Positions 14,645 through 31,770 of a stretch of 32,000 bases of DNA are shown in pieces. Each line of letters starts with the position of its first letter. Position 1 is the first letter of the stretch. The position numbers and the translations under genes were made by a program. The notes under the pieces are model-generated. The model worked only from the letters and a program-made list of their open reading frames with translations. It was not told the origin of the DNA and did not search any database. This DNA comes from Acaryochloris marina S15. GTDB taxonomy: Bacteria; Cyanobacteriota; Cyanobacteriia; Thermosynechococcales; Thermosynechococcaceae. The DNA lies in the NCBI RefSeq assembly GCF_018336915.1, contig NZ_CP064923.1:3540001-3572000 (forward strand). The letters are read 5' to 3'.

Positions 14645-15049
14645 GTGAAAAAGCGCGTTACTCTTACGTTCCCTCGGCGAGCCGTTCCTGTCCCAGTCAC
14701 CTATCGATTGGCAAAGGAGTTCAATGTGGCGGCAAACATTATTCGTGCCCAGGTTGCCCCAAATCAAATTGGTAAGTTGGTGGTGGAATTAGCGGGGGAT
14801 ATTGACCAGCTTGATGCCGCCATTGATTGGATGCTGTCTCAAAATATTGATGTGTCTTCGTCTAATCGCGAAATTCTGATTGATGAAGATAGCTGTGTTC
14901 ACTGCGGTTTATGTACAGGGATATGCCCCACCCAGGCCCTTACCCTTGACCCCAAATCTTTTTTGCTGAACTTCACTCGATCTCGCTGCATCGTCTGTGA
15001 ACAATGTGTTCCTACTTGTCCAGTACAGGCAATTTCTACTAACTTTTGA
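14645..15049 (+). CDS. NIL domain plus 2x[4Fe-4S] ferredoxin-type protein
   Basis: An N-terminal NIL-like domain (LTFPRRAVPVPVTYRLAKEFNVAANIIRAQV) is followed by two Cys clusters, CVHCGLCTGICP and CIVCEQCVPTCP. The start is GTG. Confidence 0.75.
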   Translation: MKKRVTLTFPRRAVPVPVTYRLAKEFNVAANIIRAQVAPNQIGKLVVELAGDIDQLDAAIDWMLSQNIDVSSSNREILIDEDSCVHCGLCTGICPTQALTLDPKSFLLNFTRSRCIVCEQCVPTCPVQAISTNF

Positions 15050-15063
15050 TGGATGGTTACTCT

Positions 15064-15831
15064 TTAAATCACTATCACCGAAACCATCGCTTTTAGGTAA
15101 GATAACCCCGCTGCCATCAAAACCCCTGAATACTCGCCGTTGGGTAAATGCTGGGGAAGTTGAATAGAAATACTAATTGAACCTGTTGCGTCGGATGCAA
15201 GGCTTAGAGGGTTAGGGGCAATAGAGATGGCCTGCTGAGAAATCAGATCGCCGTCACAACCATATAGATCGGTGCAAAAGAACTTGGCCTGAATGGGTTC
15301 TTCGCTATCATTGTGAACCTTAAATGCGATCTGGACTGTCTCTCCAACATGGCTGGGATGAGCCGACTGCAGTAAAGGGACACTAGCCTCGCTCGATGGT
15401 GCTTGTTCTGACACCCCTCCCGTCCAATCTGATTTGAGGGAGAGTAGATTAGCTAATTCATTCACAAACTCATGCATTTCCCCTACTAAGCCTGGAACAG
15501 AATAGCTGGTGGGTCCAGAGGGAGTCGTATTTCCTAGATCTAGAGGAGAGGCAATGGTCTGGGCTGACTGTAAGGGCGTCGTTAGATCGTTATCAAGGAT
15601 AGCAGCAGCTTGCTGTACAAGGGCTTCAGGAGTCGGTATTGTTTCAGTTCCGCCCATCATAGGCTGAATAACTTCTGCAACAGGTTCTGTGAGTGCTTCT
15701 GGTTCAGCAGGTAGCCCTCCCATTTCAGAGACGGTAGGAGGGAGAGTCCCAACTTGATCCAGAAGGCCACGGATCGATGCGGGTAGCCCTTGGTCGATGA
15801 GCTGGAGGGGTTTGCGTCGATACTGTTTCAT
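15064..15831 (-). CDS. Hypothetical protein with a disordered P/E/T-rich N-terminal half and a beta-rich C-terminal domain (last gene of the encapsulin cluster)
   Basis: The ATG has GAGGA about 9 nt upstream. It lies 38 nt downstream of the polyprenyl synthase gene on the same strand. The C-terminal ~95 aa show an alternating beta-strand pattern (VQIAFKVHN...ISISIQLP...GEYSGVL). No family is recognised. Confidence 0.6.
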   Translation of the reverse strand: MKQYRRKPLQLIDQGLPASIRGLLDQVGTLPPTVSEMGGLPAEPEALTEPVAEVIQPMMGGTETIPTPEALVQQAAAILDNDLTTPLQSAQTIASPLDLGNTTPSGPTSYSVPGLVGEMHEFVNELANLLSLKSDWTGGVSEQAPSSEASVPLLQSAHPSHVGETVQIAFKVHNDSEEPIQAKFFCTDLYGCDGDLISQQAISIAPNPLSLASDATGSISISIQLPQHLPNGEYSGVLMAAGLSYLKAMVSVIVI

Positions 15832-15869
15832 CTTGACTGTCCTCTACTTGCTACTCAAAACCAGCGGTC

Positions 15870-16922
15870 CTACAGATTGCGGCTAATCATATAGTGAATC
15901 AATTTGGGGATAAACGCTTTCTCTTCAGAGTCGGGGGCATCGCCATAGGCCACTGAGAATTCTGCTAAGGCTGCTTCGGCAAACTGATGGGCGACTGCGA
16001 TCGCATAGGCAATACTGCCATAATCCTGCATTCGTTGAATCACCCAGCTCACCTCATCTTCAGACCGTTCATCTCGAGGCTTGTCCATAAAGAATTGCAA
16101 CATATTTCGCTCCGAAGGGGTGCCCTGTTTAAATAGGTGCACTAACATCAACGTTCGCTTCCCCTCCCAAATATCGCCACCAATTTCTTTGCCATACCGT
16201 TGAGAATCCCCCACCAAATTAAGCACATCATCCTGAATCTGAAAGGCAGCCCCCATAAAGTATCCAAATTTATTGAACCGATCGAGGTCTAGGGTGTCCT
16301 TGGAGGCAATCAAGCCGCCAATCCGGCAGGGATGCATAAAGCTATACCAACAGGTTTTGTTCAAAATCATCTGCAGGTAGTCGGTCTCAGTGACATCACA
16401 GCGATTGTCCCGTACCCAGCCCAGTTCTGAAGCTTGCCCCTCCAGGGATTTCAACATCAAATGCTCAAATTCTTCATAGATCCGTTGGGTCAGTTGATGG
16501 CCCAGCAAGGGGATATTCTCCCGTACCAATCTCAGGCTTAAGGCATTCATGGCATCGCCAATATTAACGGCGATGGGCACCCCCTGCTCAGCCTGCATGG
16601 TGGGCATCCGATGACGACATTCACTGTTATCTTCCACATCATCATGAACTAGGAAAGCATTGTGAATCATTTCTAAGGCAACGGCTGATTTGAGAGACTG
16701 TTCTTCAGTTCCCCCAAAGGCCTGACAGGTCGCCATACACAAGGCGGGTCGCAATCCCTTACCCATATGAGAGAGATGTCTTTTTAACGGCTCATACAGA
16801 TAGCGTTGGGGTTCTCCCGTCGGAATCACAGCCAACAAAGCGGCCAAAGTCACGTCTCGGTAATGACCGAGATGGACCTGAAGGGTCTCTAGATCCTGAG
16901 GGGCAAGGGCAGCTAGGGGCAC
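15870..16922 (-). CDS. Polyprenyl diphosphate synthase family protein (trans-IPPS, GGPP synthase type-III-like)
   Basis: The first Asp-rich motif is FLVHDDVEDNSECRHRMPT and the second is FQIQDDVLNLVGD. GKGLRP, EGQASELGW and GKEIGGDIWEGKRTL are also present. The GTG start has AGAGG 7 nt upstream. Confidence 0.85.
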   Translation of the reverse strand: MPLAALAPQDLETLQVHLGHYRDVTLAALLAVIPTGEPQRYLYEPLKRHLSHMGKGLRPALCMATCQAFGGTEEQSLKSAVALEMIHNAFLVHDDVEDNSECRHRMPTMQAEQGVPIAVNIGDAMNALSLRLVRENIPLLGHQLTQRIYEEFEHLMLKSLEGQASELGWVRDNRCDVTETDYLQMILNKTCWYSFMHPCRIGGLIASKDTLDLDRFNKFGYFMGAAFQIQDDVLNLVGDSQRYGKEIGGDIWEGKRTLMLVHLFKQGTPSERNMLQFFMDKPRDERSEDEVSWVIQRMQDYGSIAYAIAVAHQFAEAALAEFSVAYGDAPDSEEKAFIPKLIHYMISRNL

Positions 16923-16959
16923 AAGGCACCTCTTAACGGGTAGGGAATGAGACTATTCA

Positions 16960-18939
16960 TCACTCAGGAATGATGCGGACTTTTCCAGAGCGCGGCTGAG
17001 CAGGAGAGGGTTGGGGGTGTTCTGATAATGTTTGGAGAGTAGCTAAGTTAGGGATTGTTTCAGGCATAGTTTGGGACTCGGCCATCCGCACCACAATATC
17101 TAACACCGACTTTTGCACCACTTCCATCAGCTCTTGCCGCAATTCAACGTTGTCAAATCCTTGAGTGCCGACTGCATAAAGGGGGTTACCTAATTTTTCT
17201 AGGGGCTGATCAATGGTGACTCCTAACAACTGTTCTAGAATGCGGCCTCCTTGGTGGGCCAGTCTGAGAACCGATAACCCCCATCGCACCAAACTGTCAT
17301 CCCAGGGTAAGCCCTGATGAAATCGAATGCGATCGATCACTCGCCAAGGTTCAAAAATTTCTTGCTCATGCAGTTTCCAAGTCTTGCACGGGGGAACATC
17401 TGCTTTTGCAGCAGCAATAATGCCATTGACAGCCCGACGGGCCGCTTCATTGGCTCCTTCCATCGTCGCTAGATCCGTATAGGTGCGGACGTAATCAGAA
17501 GCGAGAAACAGATTGGGAATATCCGTCACGGCATCAGGGCGCTTCGACCAAGTATTAATTAAATTGACTAGGAGTGGTTCTTCATTCGTGTCTCCTTCCC
17601 CTTCTACGAGATAAATGGCGGGATCCAAAAACCAATGGTCTAAAAATTCGTCTTTGAGAATTTCTTGACCGTGGATATTGATACTCTTTTTGAGTTGTGC
17701 CCAGACCTCATTTTTGACTTCTTCCCGGGTACATTCCTTGGCAGTTTTACCGTTGAGACCTGGTTCATCCCACTCGGAGATATCAACAGAGATGATGCCT
17801 TTAATTCGGCCATCCGCATACTGATTAAAATCAACCCCAGGCCAGAACTGTCGTTGGGAAATGGACGTGAGCGCCCAGGGAGAATCCACATAAATCGCAT
17901 GACCATGGGACAGGGGCACATCCTCTGTTAAATACAGTTGGATGCCATTCATCCAGGACACCCCGCCTTCACTGAGCTGATGGAGCTTGCCTAATTCTGG
18001 ATCCGCCGTTTTAATACTGTCGGTAACCAGCTCCGCCATGCGTTCGATCGGGACTGCAGCAATGTAATAGTCCCCTTGGGCCTGAAAGGTTTGTCCCTCT
18101 GTTTCAATCGTGACCCCCTGAATCAGGCCATTTACACAGTCAATGGCTAAGACCTTGGCCTCCAGATGATATTGCACCCCTTGTTGAATTAAGTAGGCCA
18201 GCCAAGGATTGATCCAGGCATCGTTGGTGGGTGCATTGAGCACGCGATCGCTACTCGGTCCCGGCTCTACTAAATCAAACAGGAGCTGGACAAAAATATC
18301 ACCAATCGTTTTGGTACTCGCCAGGTGGGCTTTTGCTGCGACCAAGGAGCGAGTAATGCCATGACCAAAAATTTTCTGATAGGCCGGGGAACGATGGTCT
18401 GCTTCTACAAACTCCCACCAGTCTTCTTTCTCATACTCCGCTAAGCGCCGTTCTTCACAGGAGGTAATGATTTGCCAGACCTTGGTGCCGAAAAACGCAA
18501 TTTCTTCGGGAGAAACTCCAAAGTCAGGTCCAAAGATGGTTGGAAACTCATTGAGAATTTCCTGGACATCTGAAAAGGTGCGAGGAGAGCGGGATGGAAA
18601 CACAATGGGACGCTGACCATAGCGAGCCATTTCGACCCGCGTAGTATCGACCAAATTATCGGCAACGGTTTTGTCTTTCCCGTAAGGAATCCGCGCCATT
18701 GTATCGACAATATGCTTGTAGAAGCGGGGGAAAAATCGGAAGCCATGTTCCCCAGGTAGTGGCTTCCGAGGGCCATTGGGTCCCATGCCCCCTGTATTGG
18801 GCACAGGAATACTGCGGGCCTTACCCCCCGGAATCTTCTTGGCTTCGTATACTTCTACGGCAAACCCTCGTTCAATCAGCTCATGGGCGGCACTCAGTCC
18901 GGCAACGCCGCCACCAAGGATCACAACCTTCTTTTGCAT
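16960..18939 (-). CDS. FAD-dependent oxidoreductase, amine oxidase / phytoene desaturase superfamily, with a 146-aa C-terminal extension
   Basis: The N-terminal dinucleotide fold is VVILGGGVAGLSAAHELIERGFAVEVYEAKKIPGGKA. The C-terminal FAD motif is FLASDYVRTYTDLATMEGANEAARRAV. After that, 146 further residues end in a Pro-rich linker and GKVRIIPE. The ATG has AGGAAA upstream. Confidence 0.85.
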   Translation of the reverse strand: MQKKVVILGGGVAGLSAAHELIERGFAVEVYEAKKIPGGKARSIPVPNTGGMGPNGPRKPLPGEHGFRFFPRFYKHIVDTMARIPYGKDKTVADNLVDTTRVEMARYGQRPIVFPSRSPRTFSDVQEILNEFPTIFGPDFGVSPEEIAFFGTKVWQIITSCEERRLAEYEKEDWWEFVEADHRSPAYQKIFGHGITRSLVAAKAHLASTKTIGDIFVQLLFDLVEPGPSSDRVLNAPTNDAWINPWLAYLIQQGVQYHLEAKVLAIDCVNGLIQGVTIETEGQTFQAQGDYYIAAVPIERMAELVTDSIKTADPELGKLHQLSEGGVSWMNGIQLYLTEDVPLSHGHAIYVDSPWALTSISQRQFWPGVDFNQYADGRIKGIISVDISEWDEPGLNGKTAKECTREEVKNEVWAQLKKSINIHGQEILKDEFLDHWFLDPAIYLVEGEGDTNEEPLLVNLINTWSKRPDAVTDIPNLFLASDYVRTYTDLATMEGANEAARRAVNGIIAAAKADVPPCKTWKLHEQEIFEPWRVIDRIRFHQGLPWDDSLVRWGLSVLRLAHQGGRILEQLLGVTIDQPLEKLGNPLYAVGTQGFDNVELRQELMEVVQKSVLDIVVRMAESQTMPETIPNLATLQTLSEHPQPSPAQPRSGKVRIIPE

Positions 18940-18987
18940 GATGTTTCCTGTCTAGCTATGAGGGAGGATGGGGATCAAAATTTGGGC

Positions 18988-19866
18988 TTAGGACAAAGAA
19001 AAGGCACTCACGGCACCTTCTTCCTTCACTCTCAGCACAAATTTCTCATAGACTCGGAACAGATATCTCGCCTCGTTATTGACATTTAAAAATTGCACGG
19101 TGGGGGAAGTGGCCACGACTAAATCAATGGGATCACCCGCTAAAGAAACGACCACAACTTGATAATCTTGTAATGTACTGGAACGTAAGAGCTGTGTACC
19201 TAACAAAGGCTCAATGCGATCTTTGGGTAGCACAAGAGAGTCATTTGGGGTATTTGCCTCAACAAACGCACCTTGACCTAGGATGCAAGCAAACGGACCC
19301 AGATGCCCACTTGACTCAAGGTTTGCGATCGCACCCGCAATATTAATAACAAGCCGCTCACCCGTAGAACCCGAAATTGGATCATATGACGATCTATCCA
19401 CAAGCCCATCTGCTTGTTGACCGCCCTTCACTCTACACAAAATGGGGCTTCTAGCAACCTTCAATTGTTGATTGGTTGGGTCAGCCTGAGGTAGGCCATT
19501 AAAAATGATTGCATCTTCTGAACGTGCTAATAAATTAGCTGCTCGCCGAAATACAGAAATTGCACCGATTAAATTCTCTTCAGCTAGCTGACGCTGTTTC
19601 AGCTCAATGTAAACAGACAACGTCCAAAGCCTTAGCGTATCAATATCGTCAACTTTAATAGGATCTAGTACTAGATCCTCGGATATGGGATCTTCTTCAG
19701 GTTCAACTTCAATTAGTGTTTGGCTGCGAACCACAGTGGCACTTTGTTCAAGGGGACCGCAACAAGCTAGAAATGATCCCGCAACACTAACCTTACTCAC
19801 CTCATCAGCAACAAGCTGTTGTATCTGATTCCACTGCTCAGAAGTCCAGTCAATTTGAGAGCTCAT
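18988..19866 (-). CDS. Encapsulin nanocompartment shell protein (family-1-like, Linocin_M18 / HK97 fold)
   Basis: This 292-aa protein is collinear with what I recall of T. maritima encapsulin and M. xanthus EncA. N-terminal WTSEQWNQIQQLV matches LTEKQWQEIDNRA. EDAIIFNG matches EDEVIFRG/EDELIFYG. SGHLGPFACILG matches QGHFGPYAVVLS. DLVVA...ARYLFRVYEKFVLRVKEEGAV matches DLAVS...HPFRVLEALLLRIKHPDAI. Confidence 0.8.
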   Translation of the reverse strand: MSSQIDWTSEQWNQIQQLVADEVSKVSVAGSFLACCGPLEQSATVVRSQTLIEVEPEEDPISEDLVLDPIKVDDIDTLRLWTLSVYIELKQRQLAEENLIGAISVFRRAANLLARSEDAIIFNGLPQADPTNQQLKVARSPILCRVKGGQQADGLVDRSSYDPISGSTGERLVINIAGAIANLESSGHLGPFACILGQGAFVEANTPNDSLVLPKDRIEPLLGTQLLRSSTLQDYQVVVVSLAGDPIDLVVATSPTVQFLNVNNEARYLFRVYEKFVLRVKEEGAVSAFSLS

Positions 19867-19993
19867 AGGGGCTGAATATCCTATATATCGAAAGATAAGC
19901 TAACTGCTTGCACAACACAGTTATTAGTAGAAAACCCAGTGCAGAAAATCAGATCATATAAACAAAATGGAATTGCCAAAAGTTTACAACAAA

Positions 19994-20878
19994 CTAGAGG
20001 GCATACAAATCATAAATTACGAGTAAATCTGACATTTGCACTTCCCCAATTCCGATGCACTGGAGTCGATTTAGCCATTTATACTTTGGATGCTCAGTTA
20101 AGAATCGAGGGGTTACTCTCAGTGGAGGGGCATTGAGCCATTGTTGCTTAAGGAAATTTTGATATCCCTTTTGTCCTAATTCAAAAACCCCTGAATATCT
20201 TGTTTGAATCAGGGCTCCATCAACCGTTTGAAGTGTGGCATAAGCCCCTACAATACCGATTCCATCATGACGAATAGTCATATGGTCTCCCCCTTGTGGA
20301 CCAAAAATGGCATTTAACTTTGGACCATTCACCTGTCCTGCCTTGATGGACCAGTTGACCTTCAAGCCCTCCGGAGTTTCTCCAATAATTTCAGGAGGCT
20401 CTTGTAACTGAACTTGCACAGTAGCAAGATAATTTAAATTACATGGGAATCGATGAAACTGCGATGACTTACTGGTTGGAGTTTTTGATGTGGATTGAGG
20501 AGTAGTTAATGACGATGGCAAATCATTGATAACAAAGGAGGAAGGAAATTGCTGCGTGTTGCAAACATTGGGTACTTGCCGTCCTGCACAAGATAGGGTT
20601 ACCAAATACTCTACTTTTTGGGGTTCCAATAATGACAGGAAATGAACTGAGAAGTATTGCTTTGCAGCGACATAATCAGAGTGGCGAAGTACACCAGCAG
20701 TGGATTGAACCAGTCTATTTTTATTTGAACGATAATAGACGGTAACCTTATTTGCCGGATGTAGTGGATAAACCCCAACTGTAATAGAGATGCCTTGCCT
20801 AGTTGCTATAAAGCTCTCAGATGCTGGAGCATCCTCCGTTCCATACCAAAGCTTTAACCCATCCTGGCAAACTTCCAT
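19994..20878 (-). CDS. Two-domain protein: N-terminal beta-rich domain of unknown function, S/T/P linker, C-terminal DUF3237 (UPF0311) domain
   Basis: The C-terminal half matches the DUF3237 pattern I recall: GQVNGPKL...GPQGGDHMTIRHDG...LQTVDGALIQTRYSG...RVTPRFLTEHPKYKWLNRLQCIGIG...LVIYDLYAL. The linker is LPSSLTTPQSTSKTPTSKSS. The ATG lies 9 nt after the upstream gene's stop. Confidence 0.75.
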   Translation of the reverse strand: MEVCQDGLKLWYGTEDAPASESFIATRQGISITVGVYPLHPANKVTVYYRSNKNRLVQSTAGVLRHSDYVAAKQYFSVHFLSLLEPQKVEYLVTLSCAGRQVPNVCNTQQFPSSFVINDLPSSLTTPQSTSKTPTSKSSQFHRFPCNLNYLATVQVQLQEPPEIIGETPEGLKVNWSIKAGQVNGPKLNAIFGPQGGDHMTIRHDGIGIVGAYATLQTVDGALIQTRYSGVFELGQKGYQNFLKQQWLNAPPLRVTPRFLTEHPKYKWLNRLQCIGIGEVQMSDLLVIYDLYAL

Positions 20879-20887
20879 GAGAACCTA

Positions 20888-23800
20888 TCATCCCTCTAAA
20901 GAGACAGAGCTTTCTAATTCATCTAGAAAAATACGGACTTGACTAAGGTCAGGCGTACCCAAGCTTTCCGTAAACCGATTATAAATTTCGGAGGTACATT
21001 CCCGAGCTGCGTTCACGCTACCCTGGGAAAGCCAAAAACGACCTAGGCCAAGAACAGCTCTAAGTTCCAACATGATCGAATTTTGTTTACGGGCAAGGGA
21101 TGTGGCTTTTTTAAAGCAGTCTTTCACGATGCTGACATCAGAAGCCTTGAGTATGGGTTGAGTTTGACTGAATTGTTGCCATAAAAACTCAGCTTTCAAA
21201 CGATATAACTCAGGCTCCATATGATGCTCATTCCGAGTTGTCGCCTCTTGAATTCCTGCTTCTAATGCTTGAAAGGCTTCCTCAAAACGCTCAGACAACC
21301 AATAAACCTCCGCCAACATCCCCATAACTTGTGGAAAAATAACTGAAGTTCCAGTGTTCTTAAATAACTCCAACCCTTCGATCATTTCCTGCAGACCATC
21401 TTGAGTTTTCCCTTGCCAAGCAATTGACCATCCATGAAAGAGCATCGCCACAGGAATCCACAATAGAAACCCTTCTGTGCGGGAGATATCCAGTAATTCT
21501 GCTGATTTTTCTTCAACTAAGGGCAAGTTACGAGTCAGATGATACTGATGCAAGCTAGCACCTAAGGCATAAGCTTTATTGGGAAGGTGGTTCAGGTTTT
21601 GGGCAAGTTCCATAGCAGTTTCTACCTGTTTGGGCAACTCATCTGGATAGCCCAACATCCAAAGGCTGCCTGCCAGAAACATGTGTATACATACTGCGGA
21701 AGAAAGCTGGGTTTCAAATACTAAATGTTGCTCTGCTTCAAACTCAAATCTGGTTAACCCTTCATTAGCGACCTCTCTGGCATCAACATATTCACCCCGA
21801 TAAAACTGGGTATAGCCCACTGCATGGCAAGCCATCTCATGCATGATCGGTTGATCAGCGAGTTGAGCTCTCTGCCATACTTCTCCTCCAGCCTCAAGGG
21901 CTTCATCCATTTGGCCACGGAGAAAGTAATTCGTCCACAGTCCCCATAAAGCCTTAGATTGACTTTGCTGGTCTTCAGTTTTTAGGCTGAGTACCTTTGC
22001 GCGAAGACAGGTTTGTTCAACTTCTACAGACGCCCAACCTTTAATCGCCATAAAGGCGGGAGCAAGGCAAAGCTGTATCTTCAGTTCCAATCCATCTCGT
22101 TCGTTGTTATCAGAAAGACCGTCAAGTAATTCAAGCCCTCGTATCAGATGTGCGATCGCTTCCGAATTCGCGGCTTGCTCTAAATCTCGTTGTCCAGCCT
22201 GTAACCAATATTGGATGGCAATATGCAGAAGCCCCGCTTCCGTGAAGTGATAGGCCAACAGCTCTGGGCGAATTGTTCCTTGATCATCCCTGCGTCGCTC
22301 CAGGGTATAGGCAATGCGCTGATGGTAAGCTTGCCGACGTATTTTCACTAAAGATTGGTAAGCCGCATCCTGGATCAGTGCATGTTTAAATTGATACTTA
22401 GCAAAAGGGGGAGACCCTTCTTGATAGAGGAGTCCCGATTCAACCAGTTGATTCAGACCATTGCGTAGAGTGGCTTGATTCCACTGAGACACCTCTTCTA
22501 ACAATTCATAGTCAAATTCACGTCCTAAGGTCGAGCCGAGTTGAGCCACTTCCTTCACAACAGACAGACGATCCAGGCGCTCAATCAAAGAGTCATGCAA
22601 CGTTGTCGGAATTGCCAGCGCGACATTGTCATCACTAGAACGGTTTAAGGCAGGGCTTTCATTAACATCTGCTTCTAGAACCGTTTTCGTCAATTCCTCC
22701 ACAAATAGGGGAATGCCATCTGTTTTCTGCACAATTTGTTGGACAAGGGACTGGGGCAGGGATTTCTCCTGAGCCGTTTGCTCAACCATCACCTGAATTT
22801 CTTCCCGTCCTAGGCTATCGAGCTTCAAAGAGTGAAGGTGAGGATAAGTATGCCAAGACGACGTAAATTCAGGACGACAGGTTAATAAAATGAGTAAGCG
22901 ATGATCTCGAATATGATCCAAAAAATAAGTAATGGCATCGAGGGTCGAAGCATCCATCCAATGGAGATCTTCAATCACCAGTAAGACAGGCTGTTGCTTC
23001 GCTAACGCCAAACAAACTGCTGTCATTGCCTCAATTGTTTGTTGTTTTTGCCGCTCAGGGGTCAAGTTTAACGGCGGATACTGTTCTTCAAAGGGAACGG
23101 CCAGTAAACTTGCAAATAAAGGGGCATATTCTCCTTGAGGCAAGGAACATTGCCCCATGAATTGTTCAATTTTTTCTAATTTCTCAGCAGATGTATCATC
23201 CTGAGAAAAGTTAAATGTAGCTTGCTTTAAAAATTCAGTAATGGGGTAGAAGGCACTATTACGATAGTACGGTGAACCTTGAATCTCAGTGAGCCATACG
23301 TCTTGGTTTTGAGCAACATTTTTTTTGATCTCCCAAACTAACCTAGACTTTCCCATCCCTGCTTCTCCTTGCAGCAGAACCGCACGGGTATGACCAGCAA
23401 TAGATTCTTGCCACCGTTCAGACAACAGTGCTGTTTCAGCAACTCGATTAACAAAAGGAGTTAACCCCGACTTTTCAGCAACAGCAAACCTGCTTTTGGC
23501 TTTACTTTCCTTAAGAACCTGAAAAATCACGATGGGATCTGAAATCCCTTTCAGTTTTTGTTGTTCCAATTGCTGGCATTCAAAAAACCCTTTCACTAGA
23601 CGTTGGGTTGCAGCACTAATGATGACTGTATTGGGTTGGGCCAGGGACTGTAAGCGAGCCGCTATGTTGGGTGTTGCCCCCACAATGGCCATGGGATCAG
23701 GTGCATTCTTCACCCCCATTTCGCCAATCACAACCAATCCAGTGTGAATTCCAATACGGACCGAAAGACGCTCTCCCCACTTTTTCATGATTTTGGGATT

Positions 23801-24346
23801 GAGTCTTTGCAGGGATTCTAATATCCGTAGACCACTGCTAACGGCTCTCCTGGCATCATCTTCATGGGCCCGAGGGTAGCCAAAATAGATTAGGACCCCA
23901 TCGCCTAAGTACCGGGCGATGTATCCTTCAGCATTCGAAATTGCCTTAGCACAGAGTTCCTGATAGGCCAAAAAAACATCCCGGAGATCTTCAGGATCAA
24001 GTCTTTCTGCTAAAGGCGACGACTCTACCAAATCGCAAAACATCACGGTTAATTGCCGTCGTTCTGTTTCCCGACTCCACCCATCCTCAGATGGAGTATT
24101 TATATTTGTTTTCAGCTTGTGAGTATGATTTTTATGTAAGGAAATTTGATGAGCTTCTAGAGTCTGAGCGACCAGTACTTCTTGATTGCGATCAACTGCA
24201 ATTTTTAGAACATCGATAATCTCATATTTTATGTCTTCTAAATATTGCTCATCAATGCCAAATTGTCGCTTAATCGCTCTGTAAGAAACTTGACCTCGAC
24301 GATGCAAAATCTCAATTATTTGTTCTAGAATCTCTTCAAAACTCAT
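20888..24346 (-). CDS. Multidomain signalling protein: class III adenylate/guanylate cyclase domain, AAA/STAND P-loop ATPase and C-terminal TPR-like repeats
   Basis: Cyclase motifs are present: LTVMFCDLVESS, YLGDGVLIYFGYP, VRIGIHTGLVVIGEMG, GATPNIAARLQS. The P-loop is LLQGEAGMGKSRLV and Walker B is VLLVIEDLHWMD. A long helical-repeat C-terminus follows. The N-terminal ~50 aa (ILEQIIEILHRRGQVSYRAIKRQFGIDEQYLEDIK) is typical of this architecture. Confidence 0.85.
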   Translation of the reverse strand: MSFEEILEQIIEILHRRGQVSYRAIKRQFGIDEQYLEDIKYEIIDVLKIAVDRNQEVLVAQTLEAHQISLHKNHTHKLKTNINTPSEDGWSRETERRQLTVMFCDLVESSPLAERLDPEDLRDVFLAYQELCAKAISNAEGYIARYLGDGVLIYFGYPRAHEDDARRAVSSGLRILESLQRLNPKIMKKWGERLSVRIGIHTGLVVIGEMGVKNAPDPMAIVGATPNIAARLQSLAQPNTVIISAATQRLVKGFFECQQLEQQKLKGISDPIVIFQVLKESKAKSRFAVAEKSGLTPFVNRVAETALLSERWQESIAGHTRAVLLQGEAGMGKSRLVWEIKKNVAQNQDVWLTEIQGSPYYRNSAFYPITEFLKQATFNFSQDDTSAEKLEKIEQFMGQCSLPQGEYAPLFASLLAVPFEEQYPPLNLTPERQKQQTIEAMTAVCLALAKQQPVLLVIEDLHWMDASTLDAITYFLDHIRDHRLLILLTCRPEFTSSWHTYPHLHSLKLDSLGREEIQVMVEQTAQEKSLPQSLVQQIVQKTDGIPLFVEELTKTVLEADVNESPALNRSSDDNVALAIPTTLHDSLIERLDRLSVVKEVAQLGSTLGREFDYELLEEVSQWNQATLRNGLNQLVESGLLYQEGSPPFAKYQFKHALIQDAAYQSLVKIRRQAYHQRIAYTLERRRDDQGTIRPELLAYHFTEAGLLHIAIQYWLQAGQRDLEQAANSEAIAHLIRGLELLDGLSDNNERDGLELKIQLCLAPAFMAIKGWASVEVEQTCLRAKVLSLKTEDQQSQSKALWGLWTNYFLRGQMDEALEAGGEVWQRAQLADQPIMHEMACHAVGYTQFYRGEYVDAREVANEGLTRFEFEAEQHLVFETQLSSAVCIHMFLAGSLWMLGYPDELPKQVETAMELAQNLNHLPNKAYALGASLHQYHLTRNLPLVEEKSAELLDISRTEGFLLWIPVAMLFHGWSIAWQGKTQDGLQEMIEGLELFKNTGTSVIFPQVMGMLAEVYWLSERFEEAFQALEAGIQEATTRNEHHMEPELYRLKAEFLWQQFSQTQPILKASDVSIVKDCFKKATSLARKQNSIMLELRAVLGLGRFWLSQGSVNAARECTSEIYNRFTESLGTPDLSQVRIFLDELESSVSLEG

Positions 24347-25132
24347 TTCAAGTCGCGGCTCTCTTGCTGAGAGAAAGTATTTAAGCTCAAAAAGTTACAA
24401 TATTTCTCCAAATTTGAGGTCAGTGTCTAGTCAAAGAGATTGAGATTTTAGCCGTAGTTAGATCGCCCTATAATCCCAGCATAACGCACCCACGACACAA
24501 AGAGCATAGAAGCTATGCAGGGAGGACAATAGAGTGAGATTTAGGCAAAGACGATTGCAGGGGGTTTCTCAATAACCGATACCTTGCTTAAAGGTCTTAA
24601 GGTTCTTAATATTAGACAGTCTATTAACTTAGATGAATTAGCTGGTATTCATGCCGTAGAAACCACATGCTGGGTCACTATATTCTAATATCATCAACCT
24701 CTTGCGAATACCCAGATCAATATAACCATTTGTAACAGCTGACCTTTGATATTCATCTCTTCAACCCTTTCTATCAAACCTAGAATAGAAAGACTTCAAA
24801 GTGTAGCCCTAGTGCCGTAACTCTCTTCACCAAAAAACAGGGTAACTTTCGGGCTGAAGACGAGCGGTCACAGTAGAAAGCTGAAATCAACATTCTCTGA
24901 AGAAGCGCTTGGACTATATTGAGGTTCTCTGGGAGATTGATAGCAATCCCCTTAAGATATAGAGAGTTTCAGAATCAGGTAGAGTACTTCTGGTCCTAAT
25001 CGTCTAACAAAATCCTTCTACAGGCTCATAGAGAGGATATCTAGTCTATAAGATAGATTTTGCCCCCTTATCAAGGAACAACAAAAGTTCAACCCACCGT
25101 TTAATCATTCAAAGGAAACTGACAGAGTAATT

Positions 25133-26263
25133 ATGGCCAGAAATGGGATTGGTATCAATACAGCCCAAGATCGCTCAGAACGGATTGTTGGCCAAATTCA
25201 TGTTTATGACGGAGCTGGCAAAGGCAAATCACAAGCAGCATTAGGCGTTGTACTGCGTTCAATTGGCTTAGGTATTGCGTCTGCATTTCCGACCCGTGTT
25301 CTGCTACTACGGTTTTTAAAAGGTCCTGGCCGCCCCTATGCCGAAGATGCTGCCATTGAAGCTCTGCAGCGTGCCTTTCCCCACTTAATTGATCAGGTGC
25401 GAACGGGAAGAGCTGAGTTCTTTGGGGCGGACGATATCACCAAGTTTGACCGCCAAGAAGCCCAACGAGGATGGGACATTGCCAAAGGTGCAATCGCATC
25501 AGGGCTCTACTCCGTTGTTGTTCTGGATGAACTCAACCCAGTCTTGGATTTGGGCCTCTTAGACATAAATGACGTGGTCCAATCTCTGCGCAAAAAGCCG
25601 GACCATTTGGAGGTTATCTCCACCGGTAGAGGGACGCCCCAAGGCCTGCTCAATATTGCCGATCTCCACTCCGAGATGAAGCCCCATTCCCATGAAGGCA
25701 CCCGCCAAGGGATTGAAGGGATTGAAATTTATACCGGCTCAGGTAAAGGTAAATCCACCAGTGCTCTAGGCAAGGCCCTTCAGGCGATTGGGCGTGGCAT
25801 TAGCCAGGATCAATCTCATCGTGTCCTGATTATGCAGTGGCTCAAAGGTGGCCTCGGATATACGGAAGATGCTGCCATTTCCGCCATGCAGCAAAGTTAT
25901 CCCAATCTAGTGGATCATCAGCGTTGTGGCCGAGATGCCATTGTTTGGCGAGGTCAACAACAAGAGATTGATTATGTAGAAGCAGAGCGGGGTTGGGAAA
26001 TTGCCCGAGCTGCGATCGCATCGGGTCTCTACAAAACCATCATCTTAGATGAACTCAATCCCACGGTTGATTTGGAACTTCTGCCAGAAGAACCAATCAT
26101 GCAGGCTTTTTTACGCAAACCTCGTGATACAGAAATCATCATCACAGGGCGCTGTCAGAACCCTCCTGCCTATTTTGAATTGGCGAGTACCCATTCAGAG
26201 ATGGTTTGTCATAAACACTATGCAGAAAAAGGAGTTGATCTCAAACGCGGTGTAGACTTTTAA
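25133..26263 (+). CDS. Tandem-duplicated CobO/BtuR-like protein (two cob(I)yrinic acid a,c-diamide adenosyltransferase-type P-loop modules in one polypeptide)
   Basis: There are two collinear halves. Each has a P-loop (GAGKGKSQAALG / GSGKGKSTSALG), LKG, EDAAI, RGW-IA--AIASGLY----LDELNP, LRK-P, TGR and HSEM. Only the second half ends with the CobA-like KHYAEKGVDLKRGVDF. Confidence 0.8.
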   Translation: MARNGIGINTAQDRSERIVGQIHVYDGAGKGKSQAALGVVLRSIGLGIASAFPTRVLLLRFLKGPGRPYAEDAAIEALQRAFPHLIDQVRTGRAEFFGADDITKFDRQEAQRGWDIAKGAIASGLYSVVVLDELNPVLDLGLLDINDVVQSLRKKPDHLEVISTGRGTPQGLLNIADLHSEMKPHSHEGTRQGIEGIEIYTGSGKGKSTSALGKALQAIGRGISQDQSHRVLIMQWLKGGLGYTEDAAISAMQQSYPNLVDHQRCGRDAIVWRGQQQEIDYVEAERGWEIARAAIASGLYKTIILDELNPTVDLELLPEEPIMQAFLRKPRDTEIIITGRCQNPPAYFELASTHSEMVCHKHYAEKGVDLKRGVDF

Positions 26264-30405: not shown

Positions 30406-31770
30406 TTAATCTCGCTGAGTCAAGATCATTTTGAAGTGAGAGGGAGGGGCTAAGGTCACCCCCCTACGCACGGGTTTTAAGGGTTGAGATTGCTCAAGCC
30501 GGAATTGATATCGAGTCAGAAGTGTCGAGAGCACAAGTTTCATCTCGAACAGAGCAAAGGTCATCCCCAGACAACGGCGATTACTGCCACCAAAAGGCAG
30601 ATATTCGTAGGGGGAAAATTGACGGTCTAGGAATCGCTCTGGCTGAAAGGCTTGAGGATTGGGATAGAGTTCAGGACGTCGATGGGTGAGATAAATACAG
30701 GGGGCTACAGTGGTTCCAACTGGGAGGTTATACCCCATTAAGGGCAATGACATTTTCGTTGTTCGAGGAGAGGTGATCGGGGCAATCGGGTAAATCCTAA
30801 GGGTTTCAGAGCACACTGCATTCAGGTAGGGTAAGCGTTGAATGCCTTTGGCATCATTGAGGTCAGCGGTGGCTAACTCAGCGATCAGTTTTTCCCTCAC
30901 TTCTGGGAGGAAATGAATCCAATATAGTGCCCAGGTCAACGCTGAAGCAGTAGTCTCATGCCCTGCTAACAGCAAGGTAACTAACTCATCTCGCAGTTCT
31001 ATATCGGTCATGGGATTGCCAGCTTCATCCGTGGCGGCCAGCATTAAGGAGAGAATATCTGCCCCCATTTCAGATTGGTGACGATGCTCGTCCATCTGTT
31101 GATACAGGAGGTGATCGAGTTGCGATCGCACCTGCAGAAACCGACCCCAAGGACTCCAAGCGCCCCAGTCCTTCTGTAATCCCCGTAGAAACAGCAAACT
31201 CGCACCGGCTGGTGATCCAGTTAAGTCCAAGAAGTTGGGTAATAGCGCCTGCAAAGCTTGGTATCGTTCAGAGTTCGATACTCCAAACACCGTTTTGAGG
31301 ATGACGTTGAGAGAAATGGCCTGCATGGCCTCCCGCACATCAAAGGGGTGGTTGATTTGCCAAGGTGAAGCTATTTCTTCAGTAATCTGAGTGATGGATG
31401 AGCCATAGGCTCGCATCCGTTCCCCATGAAACGGGGGCATTAAGAGCTGTCGCTGGCGTTGGTGGGATTCGCCATCCAAGAGGATGACAGATGCATTACC
31501 GAGCAAGGGCAACAATATAGAATTATTGCGGCCCGCATCCATCTTGTTTGGCTCTGCAGTGAGAATCTCTTCAATGCCGTGGGGATTGCTACAAAAAACA
31601 ATTTGGCCCAATTGCCCCAGCTGCAATGTAAATAAATCGCCATACCGTTGTGTACAAGCTTCCATGAACTCTAGGGGGCGTCCGATCCATTGCAATATTT
31701 GCCACAATCCTGAAGAGGAGGGACCTTTGGGTAAATTTTGAGTGGAGCGTTGAGTGACAATCGTTGGCAT
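30406..31770 (-). CDS. Cytochrome P450
   Basis: The heme-thiolate loop is FGGSNRRCLGMTFAL, the I-helix is LLAGHETTASAL, and the ExxR (SETLRIYP) and PERF motifs are present. Length and motifs are compatible with the cyanobacterial CYP120-like group, but that assignment is unverified. Confidence 0.9.
   Translation of the reverse strand: MPTIVTQRSTQNLPKGPSSSGLWQILQWIGRPLEFMEACTQRYGDLFTLQLGQLGQIVFCSNPHGIEEILTAEPNKMDAGRNNSILLPLLGNASVILLDGESHQRQRQLLMPPFHGERMRAYGSSITQITEEIASPWQINHPFDVREAMQAISLNVILKTVFGVSNSERYQALQALLPNFLDLTGSPAGASLLFLRGLQKDWGAWSPWGRFLQVRSQLDHLLYQQMDEHRHQSEMGADILSLMLAATDEAGNPMTDIELRDELVTLLLAGHETTASALTWALYWIHFLPEVREKLIAELATADLNDAKGIQRLPYLNAVCSETLRIYPIAPITSPRTTKMSLPLMGYNLPVGTTVAPCIYLTHRRPELYPNPQAFQPERFLDRQFSPYEYLPFGGSNRRCLGMTFALFEMKLVLSTLLTRYQFRLEQSQPLKPVRRGVTLAPPSHFKMILTQRD

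Follow-up and report, generated by a model that had tools for sequence, protein, structure and literature searches.

A divergent family 1 encapsulin in a conserved bacterial gene module with a flavoenzyme and a prenyl diphosphate synthase

In the cyanobacterium Acaryochloris marina S15, a 32,000-nucleotide (nt) stretch of contig NZ_CP064923.1 (positions 3,540,001 to 3,572,000; this whole stretch is called the window, and coordinates refer to it) carries a six-gene cluster in which the gene of an encapsulin shell protein is directly followed by those of a flavoprotein and a prenyl diphosphate synthase. Both enzymes are encoded downstream of the shell in 68 of 68 shell-selected loci that have at least 3.5 kb of downstream sequence, from at least 10 phyla. 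The cluster is, with near certainty, a functional unit, a self-contained module of five to six genes held by selection. The best-supported reading is that the flavoenzyme and the synthase are encapsulated, to which we assign a probability of about 0.5. We infer that a family 1 encapsulin would act as a nanoreactor in which an oxidised isoprenoid is made, and likewise the identity of the cargo, its loading signal and the product. The genes of the cluster are the following (aa, amino acids; ORF, open reading frame; GGPP, geranylgeranyl diphosphate).

20888–24346, minus strand: cyclase-STAND protein, 1152 aa (ORF map, Pfam, NCBIfam)
19994–20878, minus strand: two-domain DUF3237 protein, 294 aa (ORF map, Pfam, AlphaFold2, Foldseek)
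18988–19866, minus strand: divergent family 1 encapsulin shell protein, 292 aa (PF04454)
16960–18939, minus strand: Amino_oxidase-family flavoprotein, 659 aa (ORF map, PF01593)
15870–16922, minus strand: short-chain (GGPP-type) trans-prenyl diphosphate synthase, 350 aa (PF00348)
15064–15831, minus strand: p255, accessory protein of 255 aa without family match (ORF map)

The initial annotation of this DNA, made from the sequence alone, had described six co-oriented minus-strand genes separated by 9, 127, 48, 37 and 38 nt, and the ORF map places all six exactly there. Its domain calls were borne out by Pfam and NCBIfam scans, the 255-aa protein again being left without a family. The catalytic motifs of all module enzymes are intact.

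The shell survey, for which one genome per GTDB species was used, found 119 relatives. Among the 80 best of these, from which taxa were listed, are Acaryochloris, Thermosynechococcaceae, Cyanobium/Prochlorococcaceae, Armatimonadota, Gemmatimonadaceae, Acidobacteriota, Nitrospira and Myxococcales, the Burkholderiales Variovorax, Paucibacter, Ideonella and Ramlibacter, the Alphaproteobacteria Bradyrhizobium, Roseiarcus, Mesorhizobium and Rhodobacteraceae, as well as Actinomycetota (Pseudonocardiaceae) and a metagenome-assembled genome (MAG) labelled Chitinophaga. The system had been presented as cyanobacterial; it is indeed present in cyanobacteria, but the module is pan-bacterial (at least 10 phyla). 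The same genes, within unrelated flanks, surround a metagenome shell of 55% identity, an Armatimonas MAG shell of 51% and a soil contig shell of 44%, and flanking genes are wholly different between phyla. The order shell, flavoprotein, synthase is invariant, with the DUF3237 and STAND genes placed around it in at least 15 arrangements. Where 5 kb is available on both sides (n = 56), the DUF3237 protein is found in 50 loci, adjacent to the shell and either before or after it, and the cyclase-STAND protein in 54, at most 9.5 kb from the shell and variable in position and strand.

No further neighbour family recurs. When 143 other neighbouring ORFs of 22 diverse loci were tallied by Pfam, the most frequent family reached 3/22, and the tally contained no dye-decolourising peroxidase (DyP), ferritin-like or hemerythrin cargo, and no phytoene/squalene synthase, terpene cyclase or phage genes. 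That the established family 1 cargo types are absent nearby, as had been proposed from the sequence, is confirmed: no DyP, ferritin-like protein, hemerythrin or rubrerythrin is encoded in the window or in these 22 related loci. In the window, ten other ORFs were scanned by Pfam for this purpose, and the remaining genes were taken from the annotation of a 99%-identical contig.

The linkage on which the initial annotation was built is conserved not only in 68/68 loci but up to gene fusion. On the soil contig with the 44%-identical shell, flavoprotein and synthase form one 986-aa protein, and such a fusion (~986 aa) is present in 36 of 62 fully flanked classifiable systems, with 50 of 78 distinct shells and in about 60% of lineages. 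The fused proteins carry a semi-conserved motif, e.g. DPTVKRGSAYVPTPQY, in an otherwise variable inter-domain linker. On the shell tree, the fused systems form one clade. Because of this, neither the fused/split counts nor those of p255 given below (23/26 versus 0/36) are independent, and their use as independent evidence was dropped. Regarding taxa, the Cyanobium/Prochlorococcaceae MAGs (L040, L045, L059, L064, L089, L074, L077) have the fused type and Acaryochloris the split type. In addition, a MAG labelled Chitinophaga pinensis (L070) has tails nearly identical to those of the Prochlorococcaceae loci L074 and L077. This pattern and this likeness indicate horizontal transfer or bin contamination.

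The shell protein matches Pfam Linocin_M18 (PF04454) with 76 bits (gathering score 24.3) in two stretches, the N-terminal helix region and the P/A domains. It is the sole Pfam match, and there is no cyclic-nucleotide-binding (cNMP-binding) insertion (no PF00027). Comparison of the 292-aa protein with encapsulin profiles, as suggested in the initial annotation, thus succeeded for PF04454 and fell short for the family 1 equivalog, since encap_f1 (NCBIfam NF041155) gave 75.3 bits, under its cut-off of 100. The proposed family 1 type is nevertheless upheld, both by PF04454 and by a profile built on the clade, which matched 28 solved family 1 shells. The best of these is the T=3 shell EncA of M. 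xanthus (87 bits), followed by the T=4 shell of Q. thermotolerans (6NJ8, 82 bits), and the T=1 shell of T. maritima reached only 24 bits. The most conserved parts of the clade are the N-terminal helix and the next helix of the P domain. Identity of the window shell to characterised shells is about 20–25%, an estimate from weak matches, and some relatives carry the NCBI name family 1 shell protein. Judged by these comparisons, the window shell is assigned to a divergent sub-clade of family 1.

This clade has been seen before. In Giessen & Silver 2016 (bioRxiv 10.1101/085266), it is the fourth, "New" encapsulin sequence cluster, with A. marina as a named member, and its members are all said to be found in gene clusters of similar make-up, together with a P-loop NTPase and genes of lipid/isoprenoid metabolism. 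The shells of A. marina, Methylocapsa acidiphila and Geodermatophilaceae are described there as giving particles of 35, 36 and 37 nm in E. coli. The T=3 and T=4 shells that gave our best profile matches agree with this particle size. The window shell almost certainly belongs to the "New" cluster, and from the gene context described there we take the published A. marina construct to be this orthologue. The claim that the combination of genes was undescribed does not stand, as the 2016 preprint had already linked the shell clade to isoprenoid genes and a P-loop NTPase. In the 2021 census of Andreas & Giessen (PMC8346489), 90 family 1 systems are unassigned, and the family 1 system of Variovorax sp. 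HW608, possibly a copy of this module, is listed as "Minor". Variovorax is also represented in our set of module loci. Beyond the preprint, with the census as the only related entry, we found no literature combining encapsulin with DUF3237, amine oxidase or Acaryochloris, and the system goes unmentioned in a review of encapsulin catalysis from 2025. It is thus known to exist, having been flagged in passing in 2016, but is uncharacterised.

The flavoprotein consists of a catalytic core and an extension that is specific to shell-linked proteins (FAD, flavin adenine dinucleotide).

17272–18939, minus strand: FAD oxidoreductase core, aa 1-556 (PF01593, phytoene-desaturase-like fold)
18898–18915, minus strand: FAD-binding GGGVAG motif (motif search)
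16963–17271, minus strand: C-terminal extension, aa 557-659 (AlphaFold2, homologue comparison)
16963–16992, minus strand: terminal peptide RSGKVRIIPE, candidate docking/targeting peptide

PF01593 is matched over its full length (at aa 12-508), with an additional NAD_binding_8 match. All NCBIfam equivalogs tried failed: HpnE came closest (82 bits, cut-off 283), with zeta-carotene desaturase at 43 (cut-off 622) and phytoene desaturase (PDS) at 33 (cut-off 569). The AlphaFold2 model (predicted template-modelling (TM) score 0.79) has as its top Foldseek match the rice phytoene desaturase 5MOG, with E 6.5e-19, a TM-score of 0.77 over the target and 16% identity; oleate hydratases and amine oxidases come next. 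Sequence search of the PDB gave matches in the FAD-binding N-terminus only, and some orthologues carry the UniRef label hydroxysqualene dehydroxylase. The substrate is probably neither phytoene nor hydroxysqualene, because the equivalog scores are low and phytoene/squalene synthase is not linked in the 22 loci. A carotenoid/squalene pathway was rejected on the same two grounds.

Split flavoproteins run about 100 residues beyond the conserved GLPWD motif. This extension is made of helices, a disordered low-complexity linker rich in P/S/Q, and the terminal peptide; in the window protein, the AlphaFold2 confidence (pLDDT) falls below 50 at residues 573-600 and 631-659. Of the 120 closest homologues, nearly all have a variant of G-[RK]-V-R-I-[IL]-[PS] at their C-terminus: the strict expression flags about 70, most of the rest are one position off, and 4-5 end otherwise or are truncated. 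The association with the shell also holds in reverse. Among 22 metagenome loci selected by the flavoprotein and having at least 2.5 kb on each side, shell and synthase accompany 8/8 flavoproteins with extension or fusion and 0/14 paralogues without extension (Fisher exact p ~3e-6 by our own arithmetic). Over all adequately flanked loci, the shell is present in 62/62 with extension or fused synthase and in 0/12 with paralogues ending near aa 550. These contrasts probably amount to about one evolutionary event, and the counts are not independent.

The shell-less paralogues (including metagenome loci L115, L123, L128, L131, L140, L143 and L144) share a 50-57% identical core; their chains finish around residue 550 or, in some, with an amphipathic basic helix, e.g. 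...KLIELILAFLKKIFGK. This helix is a possible membrane anchor, which would suggest that a membrane-associated enzyme was re-targeted. Pyr4-like (transmembrane) terpene cyclases adjoin 2 of the 14 shell-less loci, and apart from these two neighbours their gene context gave no consistent functional clue. Two further loci, L091 and L093, had been considered as shell-less, which would have made the tail peptide independent of the shell; this reading was dropped when a broader panel of shell queries found shell-homologous DNA in both. This DNA (L091:11123-11830 and L093:7573-7968) is uncalled or fragmented on long-read metagenome contigs, probably owing to frameshift errors, so neighbourhood surveys based on gene calls would wrongly score such loci as shell-less.

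The synthase carries both Asp-rich motifs of its family.

16629–16643, minus strand: first Asp-rich motif, DDVED (motif)
16218–16232, minus strand: second Asp-rich motif, DDVLN (motif)

It matches PF00348 (polyprenyl_synt) with 200 bits. On NCBIfam, IdsA (189 bits, cut-off 468), the family 2 encapsulin cargo model f2_encap_cargo4 (NF041169; 185, cut-off 450) and GGPP_syn (173, cut-off 500) all scored under their cut-offs, and long-chain models lay far below the short-chain ones (79-116 bits). The closest solved structure is the GGPP synthase of T. thermophilus (1WMW, 168 bits). Both Asp-rich motifs are kept in 75 of 75 orthologous synthase domains, and Ala/Phe stand at positions -5/-4 in 66 of the 75, a pair that we take to match the GGPP-making F112A mutant of avian farnesyl diphosphate synthase. 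A C20 product would be favoured, judging from 1WMW and from this pair.

The DUF3237 protein is predicted to contain two confident beta domains (AlphaFold2 pLDDT 85).

20528–20878, minus strand: N-terminal beta-sandwich, aa 1-117 (AlphaFold2)
aa 121-137, minus strand: disordered S/T/P linker (AlphaFold2, pLDDT <50)
19997–20434, minus strand: C-terminal DUF3237 beta-barrel, aa 149-294 (Pfam, AlphaFold2)

PF11578 matches residues 147-293 with 104 bits (cut-off 24). By Foldseek, the modelled barrel resembles 3G7G, 4PUX and 3C5O (TM 0.8-0.89) and P. herquei PhnH (6JJS/6JJT, ~0.8), so that its predicted fold is PhnH-like. PhnH, a hydroalkoxylase acting on a prenylated phenalenone, is the sole characterised member of the DUF3237 family. 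The N-terminal domain gave Ig/Fab-like matches, and orthologous N-domains reach the cut-off of Pfam CBM_56 (27-29.5 bits). As it is absent from the crystallised single-domain DUF3237 proteins, this sandwich is a candidate shell-docking domain. In some split-type lineages (L093:15683-17251; L101, L102), a bacterial truncated globin (Bac_globin) is fused to DUF3237 in place of the beta-sandwich, giving a 522-aa protein; this is a hint that the DUF3237 component has a redox link to O2 or nitric oxide (NO). In some members of the fused clade (L009, L041, L043, L046, L061, L066), the DUF3237 proteins carry a conserved C-terminal tail, ...IRAGQPLPSSGLP-x(6-9)-LIGDIH, another candidate docking peptide that the window protein does not have.

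The last gene of the cluster encodes p255.

15796–15831, minus strand: N-terminal peptide MKQYRRKPLQLI, conserved among homologues
15067–15369, minus strand: C-terminal beta-rich domain, ~aa 155-255 (orthologue comparison)

Between these lies a low-complexity part with two helices. The protein gave zero hits against Pfam and NCBIfam, and one homologue gave weak NPCBM_assoc and fn3_5 hits. The disordered N-terminus proposed in the initial annotation finds indirect support, in that the N-terminal half is of low complexity and its orthologues align poorly, but it begins with a conserved peptide. This peptide comes in three flavours, MKxYRRKPL, MPYFERKPY and FLRRLIPFP. A profile of the C-terminal domain detected p255 in 23 of 26 split systems and in 0 of 36 fused systems, which are a single clade. 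Homologues of 640-725 aa (L097, L098, L100, L066, L086) have an extra C-terminal domain of about 400 aa with a weak likeness to acetoacetate decarboxylase (ADC; PF06314, 16-17 bits, under the cut-off), and separate ADC-like genes are present in two loci (L091:13367-14566 and L092:920-2065). With the ADC-like domain or gene, some members of the family may have gained a further enzyme.

At the other end of the cluster is the cyclase-STAND protein.

23525–24058, minus strand: class III nucleotide cyclase domain, aa 97-274 (Pfam Guanylate_cyc)
aa 298-557, minus strand: AAA_16/NB-ARC NTPase domain (Pfam)
23345–23368, minus strand: Walker A motif GEAGMGKS (motif)
C-terminal part, minus strand: TPRs (Pfam)

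Pfam scores are 74 bits for Guanylate_cyc, 68 for AAA_16 and 26 for NB-ARC; NCBIfam TOMM_kin_cyc gave 564 bits over the cyclase-NTPase-TPR part, under its cut-off of 706. The protein has the cyclase motifs FCDLVESS, YLGDG and NIAAR. Among 61 orthologues, the second metal-binding Asp and the Asn..Arg pair are kept in about 57, and the expression for the first metal-binding Asp, probably too strict, matched 31. From this domain and motif content, the window protein is classed as a class III cyclase joined to a STAND NTPase and TPRs. A cyclase-STAND gene also neighbours the flavoprotein in 5 of 12-14 shell-less paralogue loci, and since it accompanies these as well, a functional tie of STAND to the flavoenzyme is suggested.

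On the best-supported reading, a divergent family 1 encapsulin (T=3-like, ~35 nm) would be a dedicated compartment for an isoprenoid-modifying enzyme pair. The flavoprotein would be the cargo, loaded during shell assembly via its C-terminal extension, and the loading element would be the disordered linker ending in G-K-V-R-I-I-P in the window and, where the two enzymes are fused, the conserved motif of the linker. Most lineages would bring the synthase along through the fusion, and split systems with the help of p255. Isopentenyl and dimethylallyl diphosphate would enter through the shell pores; the synthase would then build a C15-C20 prenyl diphosphate in the lumen, to be desaturated or oxidised by the flavoenzyme. 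The DUF3237 protein may bind or cyclise the hydrophobic or reactive product. Overall, the compartment would shield the cytosol and membranes from a poorly soluble or reactive isoprenoid intermediate, and regulation of the system, or signalling of its output, would fall to the cyclase-STAND protein. We favour flavoprotein and synthase as cargo since family 1 cargo has the same design, a disordered linker and after it a conserved terminal peptide. The two-way linkage, the gene fusion and the reported shell assembly also speak for this reading, and its isoprenoid chemistry draws support from the PDS-like fold, the likeness of the synthase to GGPP synthases, the prenylated substrate of PhnH and the Pyr4-like cyclases beside 2 of 14 shell-less paralogues.

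Several points weigh against this reading. The placement of any neighbour inside the shell is itself something that we infer, and the fused/split contrast is, as probably that of the extension too, about one evolutionary event, with counts that are not independent. The canonical family 1 targeting pattern is hydrophobic-x-hydrophobic-x-x-hydrophobic, as in LTVGSLRR or DLGIRKL; the terminal peptide of the flavoprotein departs from this pattern, and no motif of the LTVGSL or GSLxIGSLK type was found in any cluster neighbour. The tail peptide also tracks the separate synthase and p255 as tightly as it tracks the shell, and a role in docking the synthase or p255 is just as conceivable. Fused-clade proteins have another, less conserved linker motif in its place, barely recognisable in Cyanobium-type proteins, as expected if the job of the peptide is to hold the two enzymes together. 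As for the chemistry, PDS-like enzymes normally act on membrane-embedded C30/C40 substrates with a quinone acceptor, and no phytoene/squalene synthase family (SQS_PSY) stood among the top recurrent families in the Pfam tally of 22 loci. Finally, the "Minor" family 1 class of the census (PMC8346489) is without defined cargos or targeting peptides.

The behaviour of the tail leads to one alternative, namely that it is an assembly peptide joining split flavoprotein, synthase and p255, with the shell loading the complex by some other signal or sequestering only the hydrophobic product. Both the G-[RK]-V-R-I-I-P tail and p255 are confined to split systems, and enzyme fusion coincides with the loss of both; moreover, p255 has its own conserved N-terminal peptide, and its Ig-like C-domain could accept a beta-strand. 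Still, we consider this explanation unlikely. Fused proteins retain a semi-conserved motif in a linker that otherwise varies, the loss of p255 and the change of peptide may be coincidental given a single event, and the family 1 shells characterised so far have protein cargo. We are similarly doubtful that the true or principal shell-bound component is the DUF3237 protein, with the flavoprotein-synthase pair outside the shell, feeding or receiving its ligand. Here, the N-terminal beta-sandwich would dock inside the shell as a loading domain, or outside it like the Ig-like decoration of HK97-type phages, and the linker would present the PhnH-like barrel. This would fit the gene's immediate adjacency to the shell gene in 50/56 loci, the model with its two confident domains and disordered linker, and an Ig/CBM56-like N-domain that is specific to the system, since characterised or crystallised DUF3237 proteins are single-domain and of ~130-160 aa. 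But the protein is missing from 6 of 56 otherwise complete loci (~10%), is replaced in some lineages by the globin fusion that has no beta-sandwich, and has no terminal peptide conserved across the family; the long C-terminal extension found only in shell-linked flavoproteins would also be left unexplained.

It is very improbable that the linkage is non-functional, with the shell gene hitch-hiking on a mobile island or being the remnant of a domesticated prophage capsid, and with the real cargo (DyP or ferritin-like) encoded elsewhere. Cargo located away from the shell operon has been proposed before, e.g. BfrB in M. tuberculosis, and the module does appear to move horizontally, because its phylogeny is incongruent with that of the species (Cyanobium MAGs fused, Acaryochloris split). 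However, 68/68 shells keep flavoprotein and synthase despite rearrangements and unrelated flanks in at least 10 phyla, the association holds from flavoprotein-selected loci too, and the density of HIP1 octamers described below marks the locus as ameliorated in this genome. Neither portal, protease, terminase and integrase nor canonical cargo families recur in the 22 loci, and the prophage capsid remnant was rejected on this absence of recurrent phage families.

If flavoenzyme and synthase are indeed encapsulated, a family 1 shell for a prenyl synthase and a PDS-like flavoenzyme would extend family 1 to biosynthesis; to our knowledge, all characterised family 1 encapsulins serve in iron storage or in oxidative/nitrosative stress. 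Terpenoid chemistry would then have been compartmentalised twice independently, as family 2B uses a different shell. A more far-reaching joint reading is tentative, and we would place it somewhat under even odds. It would make the module the first anabolic family 1 encapsulin, a T=3 nanoreactor with a GGPP-type synthase and a PDS-like flavoenzyme, new loading signals and a coupling to cyclic-nucleotide signalling by way of an obligate STAND cyclase, as a convergent counterpart of family 2B in at least 10 phyla. The synthase would be fused or tethered, and the isoprenoid produced, perhaps a volatile compound or a signal, would be oxidised or desaturated. Loading would rely on one or more of three elements: the G-R-V-R-I-I-P tail, the N-terminal peptide of p255 and a docking domain of Ig-like type. 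The module is widespread, in at least 119 species-level genomes that include Variovorax, Bradyrhizobium, Acidobacteriota, Pseudonocardiaceae, picocyanobacteria and Acaryochloris, and marks an unexplored isoprenoid pathway. Constructs designed from the sequence alone would allow a direct test of what the cargo is, given the comparative findings: the fusion, the shell-specific extension with its peptide, the split-only p255 and the two domains of the DUF3237 protein. Novelty is limited by the fact that the shell clade and its isoprenoid context were flagged in 2016, and the mechanism set out here is our interpretation.

As regards these earlier reports, the module and the "New" cluster (bioRxiv 10.1101/085266) are almost certainly the same, given the A. 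marina member, the isoprenoid genes and the P-loop NTPase in the preprint text. As available to us, the preprint and the census (PMC8346489) offer a one-sentence description and negative-stain sizes, with no cargo, targeting signal or mechanism proposed. Relative to that text of both papers, the gene fusion, the DUF3237 and p255 components and the linkage statistics are new here.

Among characterised systems, the shell is closest to those of M. xanthus EncA-EncBCD and Q. thermotolerans IMEF, being a Linocin_M18/HK97-fold protein of ~290 aa with an N-terminal helix and no inserted domains. As in T=3/T=4 family 1 systems, particles of ~35 nm are reported and a putative cargo gene lies directly downstream, and the flavoprotein, as putative cargo, has a disordered C-terminal linker and a short conserved terminal peptide. 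Unlike in those systems, the shell is paired with a prenyl synthase and a PDS-like flavoenzyme, not with DyP or ferritin-like proteins, and the terminal peptide is non-canonical. The role of the module looks biosynthetic rather than one of iron storage or stress defence. We know of no other family 1 operons with obligate DUF3237 and cyclase-STAND partners.

With family 2B (2-methylisoborneol, geosmin; terpene cyclase or polyprenyl transferase as cargo), the module shares isoprenoid chemistry in or at an encapsulin. Its synthase is related to the polyprenyl transferase that serves as family 2 cargo (f2_encap_cargo4, 185 bits; cut-off 450), and a cyclic-nucleotide theme is common to both, as a cNMP-binding domain in 2B shells and as a nucleotide cyclase gene here. 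However, the shell family differs, there is neither a family 2 architecture nor a cNMP-binding insertion, and no terpene cyclase is linked here. Family 2 cargo is loaded via long disordered N-terminal domains. The resemblance would be convergent. Compared with the desaturases PDS, CrtI and HpnE, the flavoenzyme has the same Amino_oxidase fold, PDS as nearest solved structure and a GGPP-synthase-like partner adjacent or fused, but identity to PDS is 16%, equivalog cut-offs are missed and the enzyme would sit in a protein shell, not on a membrane.

The cluster appears to be a long-standing part of its genome. The window holds 12 copies of the HIP1 octamer GCGATCGC, where 0.33 would be expected; this count is reached in 0 of 100 shuffles, and the four copies that had been placed in the cluster lie exactly at 15997, 18244, 19325 and 22152. 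HIP1 density is equal inside and outside the cluster, in agreement with the earlier view that the cluster is resident rather than recently acquired; on account of this density, we regard the locus as ameliorated in the Acaryochloris genome. The same six genes occur in A. marina MBIC11017, whose shell is 92% identical to that of the window, and a 99%-identical shell is present on Logan contigs. The rest of the window consists of housekeeping genes. Upstream of the cluster lies one further feature.

24347–25132, no strand: AT-rich intergenic region of 786 nt between the cluster and a divergent CobO-like gene (ORF map)

The segment 24001-25000, which covers part of this region, has a GC content of 0.39, and the region is presumed to contain the promoter/regulatory region of the cluster. 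A promoter and terminator scan gave matches not above those of shuffled sequence, an Rfam scan of the window returned zero families, and a terminator-like hairpin (18999-19021, where the shell gene ends) was considered for a role in tuning expression and rejected because its folding energy is no better than that of shuffled sequence (z = +1.3).

The divergent neighbour itself (25133-26263, plus strand) encodes 376 aa with two tandem CobA/CobO/BtuR-like (corrinoid adenosyltransferase-type) halves, and its place beside the cluster is conserved in Acaryochloris alone. About 6 kb past the regulatory end of the cluster, a gene for a cytochrome P450 (265 bits; 30406-31770, minus strand) is likewise in the Acaryochloris-specific flank, outside the conserved module. 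At the opposite end, a NIL-domain/4Fe-4S ferredoxin gene (14645-15049, plus strand) converges with the p255 gene, with 14 nt between the two stop codons, so that the transcripts must terminate within or across each other.

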